A DNA stretch of 64,000 nt from an uncultured virus (IMG/VR IMGVR_UViG_3300031952_000012) (lineage: Duplodnaviria > Heunggongvirae > Uroviricota > Caudoviricetes), in IMG/VR virus record IMGVR_UViG_3300031952_000012; one strand, written 5' to 3'. Position numbers and translations under genes: made by a program. Below the pieces are notes generated by a model, which saw only the letters and a program-made list of their open reading frames with translations, was not told where the DNA came from and did not search any database. Of the stretch, positions 1,848 to 8,241 are shown one piece after another (position 1 is the stretch's first letter; every line of letters begins with the position of its first letter).

Positions 1848-1999
1848 TTGTGCTCCCATACCCAGACAATTCCGGGCGCCCTGCAATATCGAGCGAGACA
1901 ATTCTCGCCCGAGTGCTTCACCAGCAGTGCTACGCTCTCTTCCTCTCAATCATCGATGACTTTCCATGTTATGCGAGCGCAAAATTCAGCGGTCGTCAT
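1829..1999 (-). pseudogene. Small ORF interrupted by an in-frame TGA (1946-1948)
   Basis: ATG overlaps the upstream stop (ATGA); frame reads MTTAEFCARITWKVIDD*EEESVALLVKHSGENCLARYCRAPGIVWVWEHKWKRKW. Confidence 0.35.
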
Positions 2000-2331
2000 T
2001 TTTGTTCTCCAACTTCTAAAAACTCGTACAATTCGTCTTCACACTGAGAGCCGGCTTGCATAAGATAAGACGAATCCAAACCGACGACACGTGCACGCCG
2101 CATAACTTCCGCAAGGGCTTTGTATGGACCTTCACTGCGCGCAACAACTTTTTTCCTATCATGCTCTTCATCATCTCCCTGGCAAGAGCCTCGAGTCTCA
2201 AGCGCCACTGCCCGATAAGAAGCTCCGCGCCTTCCCACCTCGACCTTAACATCGTGATACTGGTGCCCCGGAACATGCCCATAAGGTTCACCCACAGTAA
2301 CAGATGCGATAGTTTTAAAACCGTTTTTCAT
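1996..2331 (-). CDS. Small early protein in leader-repeat array
   Basis: 111 aa, AAGGAG SD, preceded by the conserved hairpin. Confidence 0.8.
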   Translation of the reverse strand: MKNGFKTIASVTVGEPYGHVPGHQYHDVKVEVGRRGASYRAVALETRGSCQGDDEEHDRKKVVARSEGPYKALAEVMRRARVVGLDSSYLMQAGSQCEDELYEFLEVGEQK

Positions 2332-2362
2332 TTTAATTCTCCTTTGGCGTCATGCGCGCCAT

Positions 2363-2545
2363 TTAGCGAGCCTTTACTATTGTCAATTGAAACTCATCGT
2401 CGCCTATTCGTACGACCAATCCGCGATTACTCGTGAGCAGTCCCTCGGCGGAGAAAGTCGAAACTGTAATCGCTTTCTTCTCATCGATCTCATCAGATTC
2501 CTCGATAACGTTCATCAACAAAGTCTCAAAGACACTCTCTCGCAT
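2363..2545 (-). CDS. Small acidic early protein
   Basis: 60 aa, AAGGAG SD; GLVVR..D.EFQLTI motif that I recall from mobile-element small proteins. Confidence 0.75.
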   Translation of the reverse strand: MRESVFETLLMNVIEESDEIDEKKAITVSTFSAEGLLTSNRGLVVRIGDDEFQLTIVKAR

Positions 2546-2590
2546 TTTATTTTCTCCTTGAGCGTCATACGCTGATTGACTACCAGTGAA

Positions 2591-3175
2591 TTACCACTTG
2601 AAATACTCGCCAAATTTTTCGGCGTGAAGCTCGCAATAGCGACCAAGAAATTCAGCCGCCGAGTCATTTCCCCCTTCGCTACGCACTTTCTCGCGGAGTT
2701 CGGCGTTCATGAGCTCAACGACCTCGGGAGGCATCTCACTGCGTTGCCCCTGAAGAACAGCTGCACTGCTAGTATACGCGCCCGGGAAATCAATCGTGAC
2801 AATGACGTCGCCATCCTCGCAAACAGCGACGCCGCCAGCCGCCTGGCCGTTGTCGTCCATCTCAACCGCCGCTTGAATTGCCTCTCGGATGCCTCCCGAG
2901 ATTTCGATCTCTTCTTTGCAACTCGAGATCGTGTACCTATTCACGATCTCAAGATCATCGATTCCCTCGCCGATGAGAAGTGACTCTTCATCCCACGACC
3001 ACACGGCGCTCGTGAATTCGGGGGTCACCCCCCCGAAAATGGGAAGATCGGTCATATCAATTTGTTCAGCGAGGTGCGTCTCATGTCTGCGATCGTAGTT
3101 GTGAATGGATTTGATGCGGTCGAACAGATCCTCGAGACTGCTAGCCTCATTGACTTCGACATTCGGGGTTTCCAT
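2591..3175 (-). CDS. Acidic multidomain early protein with C-terminal AcrIC5-like domain (putative anti-CRISPR fusion)
   Basis: Start METPN after AAGGAG; C-terminal LMNAELRE...EFL..Y...HAEKF resembles AcrIC5 as I recall it (unverified). Confidence 0.65.
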   Translation of the reverse strand: METPNVEVNEASSLEDLFDRIKSIHNYDRRHETHLAEQIDMTDLPIFGGVTPEFTSAVWSWDEESLLIGEGIDDLEIVNRYTISSCKEEIEISGGIREAIQAAVEMDDNGQAAGGVAVCEDGDVIVTIDFPGAYTSSAAVLQGQRSEMPPEVVELMNAELREKVRSEGGNDSAAEFLGRYCELHAEKFGEYFKW

Positions 3176-3216
3176 TTTGATCTCCTTTGGCGCCATGCGC
3201 CAGGTTCACTGCCAGT

Positions 3217-3687
3217 TTACTTGGATATTTTCGCCAGAGCGGCGGCGAAGGCCGCGTTAAAGGGCGGCGCGACGACTACTGGTACCGGCGCGACCGCCGG
3301 CTGAACTATGCCCGCGTCGAGCAAAAATGCGGGGGAGACCTCGAGAGTCGTGCCGTTAACGACCTGTCGATACTCGGCAGACCGGCGCTTGTATTCATAT
3401 TTCTTATAAATTCCACCTTCTTGCACCGCGAGTACGGTGCAAAAGGCGTTGCCTTGAAGGTCTTCTCGTGCCACTTGAGACGACCCCGCGCCTTCGACTG
3501 GCGCGATATCTTCACCTACGACTACCCAGTCATTTCCGGCTTCGAGCCGGTAACACGAAATACCGGCCGACCGGCCGAGGGGAACAAGCGTCCCCTTAAA
3601 AATTTTCCGCCCCTGCAGCTCTTCCGACCCGATTATCTCGAGGCCGGTACGCCCATTGATGCTGTGGTGTTTAATCAATGTTTCCAT
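3217..3687 (-). CDS. Hypothetical early protein
   Basis: Start METLIK after GGGAG SD and leader hairpin. Confidence 0.75.
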   Translation of the reverse strand: METLIKHHSINGRTGLEIIGSEELQGRKIFKGTLVPLGRSAGISCYRLEAGNDWVVVGEDIAPVEGAGSSQVAREDLQGNAFCTVLAVQEGGIYKKYEYKRRSAEYRQVVNGTTLEVSPAFLLDAGIVQPAVAPVPVVVAPPFNAAFAAALAKISK

Positions 3688-3743
3688 TTTCGTTCTCCCT
3701 TTGGCGTCATGCGCCATTAACTGCCAGTGAATCTACTCGTTAG

Positions 3744-4040
3744 TCAAATCTGGTCATCGTGTCGACGCAAAAACGACACGAAACGGTTAATGTAAGCTAA
3801 TGCGTTTCCGCAGTAGTCGTCCCAGGCCTCTTCCTTCTCATCGACCTCCTCCTTCTCATCCGCTTTATCCCAGTCTTTAACCCTCCCCAGCGCGATAGCG
3901 ATGGGGATATCGTGCTCTGTGCTTGTTTCGCCAAATTCCGTCGTACTAACTGTACAAAAACCCTCACGGGTTTCTGTAATTTCTCTCCACCTGCAAACTT
4001 CATCTCCACTTGAGTCGACTTCGTGGTTGGTGAATTTCAT
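3744..4040 (-). CDS. Small highly acidic early protein
   Basis: 98 aa, D/E-rich. Confidence 0.7.
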   Translation of the reverse strand: MKFTNHEVDSSGDEVCRWREITETREGFCTVSTTEFGETSTEHDIPIAIALGRVKDWDKADEKEEVDEKEEAWDDYCGNALAYINRFVSFLRRHDDQI

Positions 4041-4156
4041 GGTTTAGCTCGCTTTGTTAGGTTGTTTACGCTGATCTCATCGGTCGAACAGATCGACAAG
4101 ACTGCTGGCATCATTGACTTGATTCTCCCTTTGGCGGCATGCGCCAGGTTCACTGC
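4037..4156 (-). pseudogene. Decayed 5' fragment of a paralogue of gene 2591..3175, with its leader
   Basis: 4081-4120 matches 3117-3156 (QVNDASSLVDLFDR* vs EVNEASSLEDLFDR); leader 4124-4156 matches 3181-3212. Confidence 0.75.
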
Positions 4157-4157
4157 T

Positions 4158-4445
4158 TTAAATCGCCGCTAATAATTTATTGAGCAAGTCAAACCGTAAA
4201 GTGAGATGACTTTTGATCCAAAAATCTGCGGCGGGTACCGCGTTAATCGCCTGCTCAAATCGTGCGATGACTTCAGGCGTTGCCGCACGCATCGCTACCG
4301 GGCTCTCAGTCATGCGACTCACGATGTCAGCTACTACGCGATATCGGATTTTTTCCGCCCATTGTATTTGTTTTTCCGAGCCTTGAAGCTTGGTCGTGAT
4401 ATTCACCGCTACTGTTCCATATGCGCTTTGATTTTTGATTTCCAT
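4158..4445 (-). CDS. Early protein with GSEKQ.xWA motif
   Basis: LQGSEKQIQWAEKIR...AADFWI motif; start MEIKN after AGGAG. Confidence 0.75.
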   Translation of the reverse strand: MEIKNQSAYGTVAVNITTKLQGSEKQIQWAEKIRYRVVADIVSRMTESPVAMRAATPEVIARFEQAINAVPAADFWIKSHLTLRFDLLNKLLAAI

Positions 4446-5029: not shown

Positions 5030-5773
5030 TCAGAGTCGCACGAGCTTGAGCCACACTCGCCCGCCGAGCACTATCACCGACCCGAGCTCGACAGCGATCC
5101 TGTGCCCGTACAATCGAGGGTCGATGACGTCGGCTCCGAGTTGCGTTCCCGTGGACCCCTTGAAAATGAAAAGCTTATAAACGACTTTGTCGCCCTCGGT
5201 CGTTCTTAGCAAGCGCAAGTGCTGACGTGACACTCCCTGTGAAAATACACCGGGAACTTTTCCGAGGTCGAGGTCGGGAAAAATATCTCGTTGCGGGTCC
5301 TCTCGACCGATGAGCGTCACGTCACTCTCGATCCAGTGCGTTACAATGGTCTCTCGACCGTTCGAGTCGAGCACGAGGAGCGCATCGCCATGACGTTCGA
5401 CCTCATCGTTGGAAATGTCACCGTCACTCTGCTGATTTTTTTCATCGCGTTTCTGCTCGGCAGTGTCGACGACCTGCGAGGGTGGCGCGCCGGCGTTCTC
5501 TTTGTCGTCTACGCTGCTCTCGCCTTGCTGTTTCTCGGGCTCTGGCTGCCCCGCTGTTGGTTTTTCCCCCTCGGTTGGGGTGCTCACTAGATCGGGCGCC
5601 TTTGCGTTGACGGTGAGGGCCTCTGAGCCTTCGAGCGCTTCGGCGGGAATGAGCGGGAAGAGATCGGGCGGGGGAGGCAAATTGCCCGAGAGCAAATCTC
5701 CGCCGCAAGAATCGCATTTGATCGCCTCGGGGTTCTCGGTCACGCAAGAGCAAGTCGGGCATCTCTTTGCCAT
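5030..5773 (-). CDS. Zinc-ribbon plus FHA domain protein
   Basis: N-terminal CPTC...CDSC; disordered linker; FHA motifs IGR, VSRQH, STGT. Confidence 0.85.
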   Translation of the reverse strand: MAKRCPTCSCVTENPEAIKCDSCGGDLLSGNLPPPPDLFPLIPAEALEGSEALTVNAKAPDLVSTPTEGEKPTAGQPEPEKQQGESSVDDKENAGAPPSQVVDTAEQKRDEKNQQSDGDISNDEVERHGDALLVLDSNGRETIVTHWIESDVTLIGREDPQRDIFPDLDLGKVPGVFSQGVSRQHLRLLRTTEGDKVVYKLFIFKGSTGTQLGADVIDPRLYGHRIAVELGSVIVLGGRVWLKLVRL

Positions 5774-5774
5774 T

Positions 5775-7091
5775 TTAGTTCTCCTTCTTCTCGACCTGCA
5801 AACCGGGTTTCAAGAACGCGGGGCGCGCGGCGACAACCGTGCTCTCGACGACCGCGCGATTGACGGCGTCCATCGAGGTCAATCCCTCTGCGATAATCTC
5901 ATCGAGTATCGCCTCGTAACGCTGTCTCATTTTTTCGTCGTGCAACTCTGCGCACCGCTTCACTAACACTCTGAGATATTTTGTCACCTCGTTGATGCTG
6001 CCCTCGCCCTTCTTAAATTTCTCGTGCGCGGTCGTGAAATAGGAAGTGAGTTGCGTGATCGTCACTCGACGATAGACCTCGGAGACCTCTGCGTTTGCTA
6101 GCTGTGTCAGTTTTCTATCTGACACGAGCTCGACCGAGAAGAGTTTCTTCTCCGTTTGGTCGACCAAGTTCATCGCGGGAACGTCATAAAAAACGGTCGC
6201 TTCACACACAGTCTGTGTACCAGCGAGAGCGCTCTCCACGTCCATCACAACCAAGAACGAATATTCTTTTTCTGACTCGACATTCCCGACAATAAATTTT
6301 GCGGTCCGCTTGCTGTCAAGTTTTAGGTTGCCGAGAAATGCCTGCTCGGGCGCGGCCTTGTACGCGAGGCTTACCTCGACGGTCGAAGAGAATTTGAGCT
6401 CAAGGCGCACGTTCGCCACGACGAAATTCTCGACGCGTCCGACGATTCCCATCAGCGTCTCTTTGATTTTCTCGCTCTCGTTTGCAGCGAAGACCACGCC
6501 GTTGGAGCTCGTGACCATTTGCAAAAGATGATCGGCTTTGTAGTCGGCTCCCATGCCGACCGCGAAGAGTTGCACCTTTGACTCGGCGGCGGCAAGGGCA
6601 ACCGCGCTTGCCGTTTCCGGGAAATCGGCGACGCCGTCGGTCAAGAGGATGACGACCGAAACGGGCTTTTGACCTCTCTCGCAGGCGCGCGTTGCCTCTG
6701 TGATCGCGTCGGTCATATTCGTTGAGCCGCCGGCGAGATCACGAATGGCGTCTATCTGCGCGAGAATCTCGGAGCGGTTCGCGTCGGTGACCGTTTCGTT
6801 GTCGAGCAGAATGTGAATGCGCGATTGAAACGCGATGAGCGAAAACTTTTGGTTCTCGCTGACCGATGACGCGATCATCTTTGCCGCATCAATGGCGGCG
6901 TCGAGCTTGCCATTCACGAGCATCGACGCACTACAATCAAAGAGCAGGCAGAGCGACGCGTCGACTGGGAGCGAGACCTTCTGGTCGAGGTCGACACCCG
7001 GCTTTATTTTCACAAGCAGTTTAAGCTCGTGCTCGACACCCGTCATCAACTTCTCGTGGTCACCTAGCAACTGCAAGTCTAACAAGTTCAT
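5775..7091 (-). CDS. von Willebrand factor A (vWA) domain protein
   Basis: MIDAS DCSAS, GGST and LTDG; start MNLL at 7091 after GAGG. Confidence 0.9.
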   Translation of the reverse strand: MNLLDLQLLGDHEKLMTGVEHELKLLVKIKPGVDLDQKVSLPVDASLCLLFDCSASMLVNGKLDAAIDAAKMIASSVSENQKFSLIAFQSRIHILLDNETVTDANRSEILAQIDAIRDLAGGSTNMTDAITEATRACERGQKPVSVVILLTDGVADFPETASAVALAAAESKVQLFAVGMGADYKADHLLQMVTSSNGVVFAANESEKIKETLMGIVGRVENFVVANVRLELKFSSTVEVSLAYKAAPEQAFLGNLKLDSKRTAKFIVGNVESEKEYSFLVVMDVESALAGTQTVCEATVFYDVPAMNLVDQTEKKLFSVELVSDRKLTQLANAEVSEVYRRVTITQLTSYFTTAHEKFKKGEGSINEVTKYLRVLVKRCAELHDEKMRQRYEAILDEIIAEGLTSMDAVNRAVVESTVVAARPAFLKPGLQVEKKEN

Positions 7092-7116
7092 TCGCTGCCT
7101 CGCTCTCAAATCAAGT

Positions 7117-8241
7117 CTACACTTTCTCATTCCAAAGTGACCACGCAAGTTTTGAATCCATCTTTGATCCTACATATTCAAATCCAACCGTTTGTCTGAC
7201 AAGATCCGCCGTCCAATCCTGCCCAACTTTCGTCGACCCCGATCTCTGCAAAGAGCAAGGCCCAATGATGGTTGTCTTCCAATTCTTGCTTCTTCTTCTT
7301 GAGACAATCATTCCCGGTGCAGAAGTTCTAGAATAATAACGCCCTTCAAGGCCGCGTATCAGCGAACCAATTGCATCGCTCATTGCGTTGCCTATACCAA
7401 CGCCCTGAAAATCAGGAAGACAAACAGTACGATGCTCTCGCCAACTGTTTTTCAATGTCGCGTGCGGCAAATAAATCACAGCCGTAAATGCAACAGGACT
7501 ATTATTCCAAACCGCAACAAAGCACCTCGAAGATCTCGTCAACGTACGACTCAAATAATGATGCGATGCGAATATTTCCCACGCTTCACGAGAGACTCGC
7601 TTAATGTCAAGACTGATTGCTGGTCTTCGTTGAAGATCCCTCCAGTAAAACTTCCCTATATGCGGCTCAAATGCCCAATCTGGTTGAAGCCAATCGATCA
7701 CGTCGTAATGGCATGTAGCCGCGATGAACTGTTGATTTCTCTTTCGCACGGTTCGGGCAATGGCGGCGCTGCCAATCTGTGCGACAGTGCGATCAACAAC
7801 GGACGTGAACTCATCGACGACTGTCAACTGTTTATTTTCTGAAAGAGCTCTTGCAATATTAACTCTGAATTGCTCTCCGTTTGACAGCACGTGAAAAGGT
7901 TTCAGCCATGAAGGCGGTGAAGAAAAACCGACTGAAGATAAAAGCTCAATGACATCTTTAATCGACTCACTATCAAAACAATCAACAATCGCTTTGTTTT
8001 TGTCCCATTCAAACGGCTTCATCAACGCATCAGCGAATAACTCACGGGCAATGGTCGTCTTGCCTGCGCCACTTGGGCCCACTATTAAACCAACATTCCA
8101 AGTTCGTTCGTCGAGTGGAAGATCAACATCCCATTCTGAAGAAACATTTTCGCTCGGAGGAACATCAAATATGCCACGCAATTGCAAAACTTTTGAAGTA
8201 ACAACAATCGGAGAACTGACTACAATATGAGCGCGCGGCAT
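7117..8241 (-). CDS. ABC-type ATPase fused to GNAT/Mom-like acetyltransferase
   Basis: Walker A GPSGAGKT, signature LSNGE, Walker B VVDE; C-terminal HHYL and acetyl-CoA motif PDFQGVGIG; no TM segments. Confidence 0.85.
   Translation of the reverse strand: MPRAHIVVSSPIVVTSKVLQLRGIFDVPPSENVSSEWDVDLPLDERTWNVGLIVGPSGAGKTTIARELFADALMKPFEWDKNKAIVDCFDSESIKDVIELLSSVGFSSPPSWLKPFHVLSNGEQFRVNIARALSENKQLTVVDEFTSVVDRTVAQIGSAAIARTVRKRNQQFIAATCHYDVIDWLQPDWAFEPHIGKFYWRDLQRRPAISLDIKRVSREAWEIFASHHYLSRTLTRSSRCFVAVWNNSPVAFTAVIYLPHATLKNSWREHRTVCLPDFQGVGIGNAMSDAIGSLIRGLEGRYYSRTSAPGMIVSRRRSKNWKTTIIGPCSLQRSGSTKVGQDWTADLVRQTVGFEYVGSKMDSKLAWSLWNEKV

Follow-up and report, generated by a model that had tools for sequence, protein, structure and literature searches.

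The DNA analyzed here, which we call the window, is a 64,000-nucleotide stretch of an uncultured virus (IMG/VR IMGVR_UViG_3300031952_000012). It is a piece of a tailed-phage genome in which nearly all genes are on the minus strand. Structural genes (tail sheath, tape measure, baseplate wedge, and endolysin) are followed by replication genes for a DNA polymerase, a primase, a DnaB-like helicase, a UvsX-like recombinase, an SSB, and an SbcCD-like nuclease. Further genes encode two ParB-like proteins, an ATPase, a vWA protein, and a weak FHA-like protein. Past the FHA-like gene, small genes follow one another up to a 377-aa gene, the last of the series. Among them is the gene described here, whose product combines an N-terminal LPxFGG...VWSWD domain with an AcrIC5-like C-terminal domain.

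No close isolated phage was found, the best matches of the DNA polymerase being at about 27% identity, and a tRNA gene search found none. The nearest virus record, 35.9 kb long and with a completeness rating of 32%, is a fragment that does not carry the fusion gene; extrapolating from this related fragment, the phage genome is perhaps about 110 kb in size. Immediately upstream of the small genes is a conserved trio (5030-8241, minus strand) encoding the ATPase, the vWA-domain protein, and a zinc-ribbon/FHA-like protein, and the trio is 97% identical in L002, one of the related loci that we collected. The ATPase matches phrog_11143 (E 3.4e-110) and has weak GNAT-acetyltransferase matches under the Pfam cut-offs, and the FHA score of the zinc-ribbon/FHA-like protein is also under the Pfam cut-off.

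The fusion gene has the following parts:

2591..3175, minus strand: 194-aa fusion protein, coding region from ATG 3175-3173 to stop codon 2591-2593
2927..3145, minus strand: N-terminal LPxFGG...VWSWD domain, residues 11-83 (our own HMM, family search, and AF2)
2774..2911, minus strand: acidic middle segment, residues 89-134 (charge, low pLDDT, and conservation among close relatives only)
2600..2761, minus strand: AcrIC5-like C-terminal domain, residues 139-192 (PF22147, 7yhr_A, and predicted helices)
2600-2725, minus strand: Pfam core of the AcrIC5-like domain, residues 151-192 (PF22147)

The fusion gene and its C-terminal domain

Translation of 2591-3175 gives a 194-aa protein that contains LPIFGGVTPEFTSAVWSWDE. 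The 43 C-terminal residues described in the initial annotation are the exact end of this translation, and the N-terminal LPIFGG...VWSWDE motif is present as written there. The minus-strand open reading frame extends over 2591..3196 and has 201 aa counted from its first ATG. However, we prefer ATG 3175 over ATG 3196 as the most likely start, because an AAGGAG sequence (3187-3182) is 6 nt 5' of the former, the latter falls in the loop of a palindrome with further copies ahead of neighboring genes, and the relatives P0003 and P0004 begin with METPN, as does the 194-aa form.

The L002 allele of the fusion gene is 83% identical to the window gene. Between the two, dN/dS is 0.18 overall, with values of 0.24 for the N-terminal part, 0.11 for the middle, and 0.14 for the C-terminal part. 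The fusion gene is therefore a real gene under purifying selection over its whole length. As the initial annotation had described, its product is acidic (pI 4.21, 41 D/E versus 14 K/R) and has an acidic middle (10 D/E versus 1 K/R in residues 89-134). The C-terminal part (residues 135-194) is mildly acidic by itself, with a pI of 4.84 and 11 D/E versus 7 K/R.

The likeness of the C-terminus to AcrIC5 that the initial annotation had proposed is recovered by profile and sequence searches. PF22147 (AcrIC5) is the sole Pfam family found in the 194-aa protein, with a score of 30.2 bits (E 5.2e-7) over profile positions 12-53 of 53; the curated gathering cut-off of this family is 27 bits. Two relatives are above the cut-off too (P0003, 33.4 bits, and P0004, 28.7 bits), and the distant relative P0020 scores 18.9 bits, under it. 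A phmmer search of all PDB sequences returned only one significant match, 7yhr_A (E 8.2e-4, 22.6 bits, bias 0.0), in which residues 139-192 of the query align with residues 4-57 of the 60-residue chain. Counted from this alignment, 23 of 54 aligned positions are identical. A further alignment suggests that DGDVIVTIDF (residues 120-129) may match the N-terminal strand region of AcrIC5, with an insertion of roughly 20 residues. When a profile of four family members was used, 7yhr_A was again the sole significant PDB match (E 3.8e-4). As a control for specificity, PF22147 matched none of five genomes, none of 401 genomes of one phylum, and none of 14 control genomes.

An important caveat is that the Pfam and PDB searches are not fully independent, because PF22147 was built around AcrIC5. 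Taken together, the two matches make chance unlikely, and the C-terminal segment is very probably homologous to AcrIC5.

We built a full-length AF2 model on a 141-row alignment. Residues 1-80 are predicted with a pLDDT of about 95-98 and form an alpha+beta domain of two helices, a long loop with LPxFGG, and a three-stranded sheet with VWSWD. In the middle, segments 89-97 and 110-146 are under pLDDT 50, and the C-terminus is modeled as three helices (residues 150-191) with a pLDDT of about 70-78. Residues 96-194 folded alone, from four sequences, have a mean pLDDT of 55.5, and this model gave no match in Foldseek.

The structure comparison with AcrIC5 that the initial annotation had proposed did not recover 7YHR, from low-confidence models of the C-terminal domain. 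For the full-length model, in which this domain has a pLDDT of only 70-78, 7YHR was not listed by Foldseek against the PDB. A wide VIA-align search with the same model gave generic helical matches (best Z 4.7), and a second look with VIA had a best Z of 3.4; 7YHR was listed in neither. Neither these searches nor one of BFVD with the full-length model gave a clear fold match for either end.

The N-terminal domain family and the relatives of the fusion

A HMMER scan of 1.84 billion representatives found 369 representative proteins of the LPxFGG...VWSWD family at E<=1e-3. In the 150 family matches listed, the aligned residues are about 15-90, except for P0003, P0005, and P0015. P0005 and P0015 are repetitive low-complexity proteins that match the middle segment, and we disregarded them as relatives. 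None of the 150 relatives scanned has a Pfam model on the VWSWD domain itself. The window protein has no PHROG or NCBIfam match, its N-terminal part has no Pfam or PDB sequence match either, and a scan of this part gave neither an HTH nor any other DNA-binding family. An ESM Atlas search with the domain scored at most 0.83 and was uninformative, and a full-text search with its motif string returned no paper.

The VWSWD domain is essentially alone in 74 of the 154 domain-bearing proteins that we collected. An N-terminal extension is present in 35 and a C-terminal extension in another 35, which include the window protein and its four full-length relatives; the domain is mid-protein in seven, and three have more than one copy. 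Two copies in one protein are seen in P0026, P0112, and P0019. The extensions are diverse and seldom recur. Few could be identified, namely HTH_3 (P0043 and P0069), a NikA-like domain (P0072), and a HicB/Arc-like domain (P0121).

The domain occurs on plasmids, namely Thioalkalivibrio pTK9001, three Comamonas plasmids, and one Methylobacterium plasmid, where the domain gene belongs to a string of small hypothetical genes that follow a zincin-like protein. A tblastn match (H1) with 72% query coverage was rejected as a read-through artifact, the real part being the N-terminal domain at the C-end of a 236-aa plasmid protein. On metagenomic contigs, the domain is found near orphan DNA methylases, a sliding clamp, DUF5131, and a ResIII helicase, and in a Gemmatimonadales MAG its gene adjoins a clamp and an integrase. 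Judged from its distribution among protein sequences, the domain is an independent, mostly stand-alone, modular unit in mobile-element proteins, occurring alone or with diverse partners.

An unexpected non-mobile setting of the domain, which is otherwise in phages and plasmids, is an operon in the chromosomes of myxobacteria (Archangium, Hyalangium, and Chondromyces). Here, an LPTFGG...VWSWD gene has a conserved position beside the A and B subunits of a CoA-transferase, with a thiolase as the context partner in Archangium and Hyalangium and an enoyl-CoA hydratase in Chondromyces:

L006, about 3860-4174: VWSWD gene, thiolase neighbor
L007, about 4001-4153: VWSWD gene, thiolase neighbor
L009, 3851-4336: VWSWD gene, enoyl-CoA hydratase neighbor

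This setting argues against a purely counter-defense role of the N-terminal domain. Because the domain occurs in a metabolic operon context, it is no pointer to counter-defense by itself. The initial annotation had proposed a multi-domain anti-defense fusion. The protein does have more than one domain, since its N-terminal motif marks a separate domain of wide distribution, here joined to an AcrIC5-like one. The N-terminal part, found also in the myxobacterial CoA-transferase/thiolase context, is at most a candidate for an anti-defense role.

The two end domains are joined in four protein clusters: P0002, which is that of the window protein, P0003, P0004, and the distant P0020. A profile search of a 5.8-billion-protein collection, which scored the 8000 candidates with the most shared words, found only these four clusters. 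P0020 is 37% identical overall and keeps both end domains (jackhmmer E 3.1e-16); its C-terminal part is 44% identical to that of P0003 over 45 aa (BLASTP). The middle segment is identical at 41 of 45 aligned positions in P0003 versus 5 of 24 in P0020. No split form of the fusion was seen: an HMM of the C-terminal domain, run on all collected loci, matched only orthologues of the window protein and found no separate AcrIC5-like ORF in any of them. A word-based search gave no shorter stand-alone relatives. The presence of four clusters, together with a diverged P0020 that keeps both ends, argues that the fusion is rare, yet old enough for divergence, and maintained.

The small-gene array and its repeated element

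The fusion gene is one member of an array in which each gene stands behind one copy of a repeated element:

2339..4144, minus strand: small-gene array, each gene behind one element copy (pattern hits and gene order)
1996-2331, minus strand: 111-aa gene, array member
2363-2545, minus strand: 60-aa gene, array member
3217-3687, minus strand: 156-aa gene, array member
3744-4040, minus strand: 98-aa gene, array member
2339-2357, 2554-2572, 3182-3200, 3696-3714, and 4126-4144, minus strand: element pattern hits
3176..3216, minus strand: element copy ahead of the fusion gene, with the near-palindrome ACTGGCAGT, GGCGC-ATG-GCGCC (3201-3189), AAGGAG, and a 6-nt spacer
4081..4120, minus strand: recombination scar of 40 bp

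The general layout of the element is the near-palindrome ACTGGCAGT, a palindrome of the form GGCG(C)-loop-(G)CGCC, AAGGAG, 5-7 nt, and ATG. Its pattern has six hits in the window, of which five are inside the array (about 2 kb) versus 0.12 expected by chance. In one copy, both ends of the palindrome carry a symmetric change. Copies also occur elsewhere, with four in the locus L001 (1860-3235) and two in L002 (10805-11598). The interval from the FHA-like gene to the 377-aa gene differs in content and order among the window, L001, and L002, as with the 156-aa gene, which precedes the fusion gene in the window but follows it in L002.

At 100% identity, the scar at 4081-4120 matches 5' coding sequence of the fusion allele in L002. 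In the window it has become, in a different reading frame, part of a leader ORF of 25 codons that begins at ATG 4114 and ends in an ATGA overlap (4040-4037) of its stop with the start codon of the 98-aa gene, to which it may now be translationally coupled. As far as these sequence comparisons go, the array looks like the outcome of cassette shuffling by recombination at the shared element.

The element could be bound as an operator by a dimeric regulator, it could act as a signal in mRNA processing or translation, or it could be nothing more than a recombination substrate. Folding of its RNA was not energetically favored over shuffled sequence (z -1.07 to +0.52), and it has no match in Rfam. 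A 12-nt motif of the type I-C repeat handle has 15 hits versus 11.4 expected and is not enriched. On these three grounds we rejected the reading of the element as an RNA anti-CRISPR. A sigma-54-type promoter, considered by eye, was also rejected, its spacing being off by one.

The initial annotation had regarded the other small genes of the array as acidic and had proposed that the fusion would mark the whole array as an anti-CRISPR/anti-defense locus. The neighboring small proteins range in pI from 4.46 to 9.99, with 6.73 for the 156-aa product, and so are not uniformly acidic. In the window, L001, and L002, none of them matches a family above its curated cut-off or a PDB sequence, and no HTH or Aca-like gene was found in the 13 window proteins or the 34 ORFs of L001 and L002 scanned. 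These results give the locus assignment no support from known families, but the variable cassette region does fit an accessory or counter-defense role, and we keep the array as an anti-CRISPR locus as a lead only.

A strong terminator-like hairpin with a 10-bp stem, seven G-C pairs, and a T-rich tail is located at 781-805 on the minus strand, directly past the stop of the 377-aa gene. It suggests that a long minus-strand transcription unit has the array at its distal end.

Possible function of the fusion protein

AcrIC5 was discovered beside aca1 in mobile elements of Pseudomonas aeruginosa and is reported to block both type I-C interference and CRISPRi, i.e., target DNA binding (PMC7913775). 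The same report describes activity on two I-C systems whose cas genes are 35-55% identical, inhibition of the I-C system of Eggerthella lenta, and orthologues in Proteobacteria, Firmicutes, and Actinobacteria (PMC7913775). A homologue from a Bifidobacterium pseudocatenulatum prophage is described as inhibiting type I-C, with an RNA anti-CRISPR 11 nt downstream (PMC10651486). AcrIC5 is presented as a small, highly acidic protein that is a monomer in the crystal structure (PMC10478522), and an AlphaFold 3 model reported in a preprint places it on the PAM-recognition site of Cas8c (10.1101/2025.06.06.658234).

The C-terminal domain of the window protein resembles AcrIC5 in its probable homology over nearly the whole 60-aa protein, in an acidic character that is mild in the C-terminal part alone, and in being carried by a phage. 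AcrIC5 is a stand-alone protein of 60 aa, whereas here the domain is the C-terminal third of a 194-aa protein. The founding AcrIC5 locus has an adjacent aca1, whereas the fusion gene in the window has no aca1-type neighbor. Many Acr loci are without aca genes, so an adjacent aca gene is no strict requirement.

Fused anti-CRISPRs have been described before. AcrIE4-F7 is likewise reported to be one polypeptide that combines an Acr domain with a separately evolving module, and both of its halves are described as targeting PAM-recognition sites, the same site as predicted for AcrIC5 (PMC8887544). However, both halves of AcrIE4-F7 are known Acrs by that description, whereas the partner in the window fusion is of an unnamed family that also occurs outside mobile elements; only one half of the window fusion is a recognizable Acr family. 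AcrIIA15 is similar in that each of its two domains has its own task, that of the C-terminal one being to block DNA binding, as described in PMC10901769. Its type of two-domain self-regulation, as described there, differs from the present case, in which the N-terminal part has no HTH or DNA-binding family. The N-terminal domain family is sometimes fused to HTH_3, NikA-like, or HicB/Arc-like domains, which makes it a partner of such domains rather than one of them. An 'AcrIC5 + AcrIIC4' candidate provides a printed precedent for an AcrIC5-like module in a larger putative Acr (PMC10799925). That candidate differs in being based on structural similarity and in having another partner, although the two may be the same family. 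Because of the AcrIE4-F7 and AcrIIA15 fusions and this printed candidate, a fused Acr is not new as a kind.

In our best reading, the window protein belongs to the AcrIC5 family but has a new architecture, in which an AcrIC5 domain ends a conserved three-part phage protein. The three parts would be an alpha+beta LPxFGG...VWSWD domain, an acidic linker-like middle, and a helical C-terminal domain homologous to AcrIC5, all carried by a contractile-tailed phage. The anti-CRISPR activity, target, and mechanism that we infer for the fusion protein are drawn from analogy with AcrIC5. In this model, the C-terminal domain would bind Cascade, probably at the large subunit Cas8c near the PAM-recognition site, and Cascade bound in this way would be stopped from binding target DNA. 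The N-terminal domain might contribute a second activity, serve as a scaffold, or bind a conserved cellular component. We put the chance that the window protein inhibits DNA binding by type I-C Cascade somewhat above even. Weighing against it are the size of the protein, the lack of any aca-like HTH gene among the neighbors scanned, the mild acidity of the C-terminal part, and the PF22147 score of P0020 under the cut-off; its setting in a variable array of a phage genome and the low pI of the whole protein weigh in its favor.

A domain truly homologous to AcrIC5 could have drifted to become a helical protein-binding module for some other host or phage partner, for example another defense system or a replication or recombination factor, and would then not inhibit type I-C. 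Such drift would be in keeping with a domain that is inside a protein three times the size of AcrIC5, unlike the 60-aa stand-alone form, that has no aca gene nearby, and whose gene is at the distal end of a replication/recombination module (UvsX-, SbcCD-, and ParB-like proteins, ATPase, vWA, and FHA-like). In addition, the two reports of experiments on the family cover only two tested members (PMC7913775, PMC10651486). However, the alignment with the validated AcrIC5 has 23 identities over 54 positions, the C-terminal part is under purifying selection (dN/dS 0.14), and the same reports describe the family as broad-spectrum and active across phyla (PMC7913775, PMC10651486), so we judge drift unlikely, though still credible. 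We regard it as most improbable that the AcrIC5 match is chance similarity of a short amphipathic helical segment with no homology behind it. The match is short (42-54 residues), its score is modestly over the threshold (30.2 versus 27 bits), and 7YHR was not recovered structurally, with models of modest or low confidence. Yet the Pfam and PDB searches, though not mutually independent, agree on a single answer with significant E-values, P0003 and P0004 are also over the PF22147 cut-off, the PDB match needed no bias correction (bias 0.0), and PF22147 was silent in 406 genomes and 14 controls.

The weight of the protein could also lie at its other end, with the VWSWD domain binding a conserved cellular component as the main activity and the AcrIC5-like tail being accessory or a remnant. 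No other part of the protein is as well conserved or as confidently predicted as the N-terminal domain (pLDDT 95-98); its family has 369 representatives versus four fusion clusters, and it stands alone in 74 of 154 proteins. But the C-terminal part is as constrained as the N-terminal part (dN/dS 0.14 versus 0.24) and is kept in the distant P0020; a decaying remnant does not fit this constraint and retention, and we find this alternative very unlikely. A more far-reaching proposal would make the VWSWD domain a new, very widespread counter-defense or host-takeover module of phages and plasmids that is mixed with variable partners (HTH or RHH regulators, diverse extensions, and here an AcrIC5 domain), the window protein a dual inhibitor, and the array a cassette-shuffling counter-defense island of new inhibitors. 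This proposal, taken as a whole, seems quite unlikely to us.

If the C-terminal domain does inhibit type I-C Cascade, as in the reading that we prefer, it would be the first AcrIC5-family protein known as part of a larger fusion that is conserved. An unnamed domain family of 369 representative clusters would become accessible to experiment as well, and the compact, recombining small-gene array would be a place to seek further inhibitors. If it does not inhibit type I-C, an above-threshold match to the AcrIC5 profile alone would not predict anti-CRISPR function.

Inhibition would, moreover, add an uncultured, contractile-tailed environmental phage to the range of the AcrIC5 family. Among isolated phages, tblastn with the 194-aa protein found nothing at E 0.01 and four chance-level rows at E up to 10. 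At chance level (E 0.6), an unannotated stretch of a Microviridae genome from pig feces (MG945373.1, 3823-3966) is 41.7% identical to residues 152-194 and is possibly another AcrIC5-like ORF.
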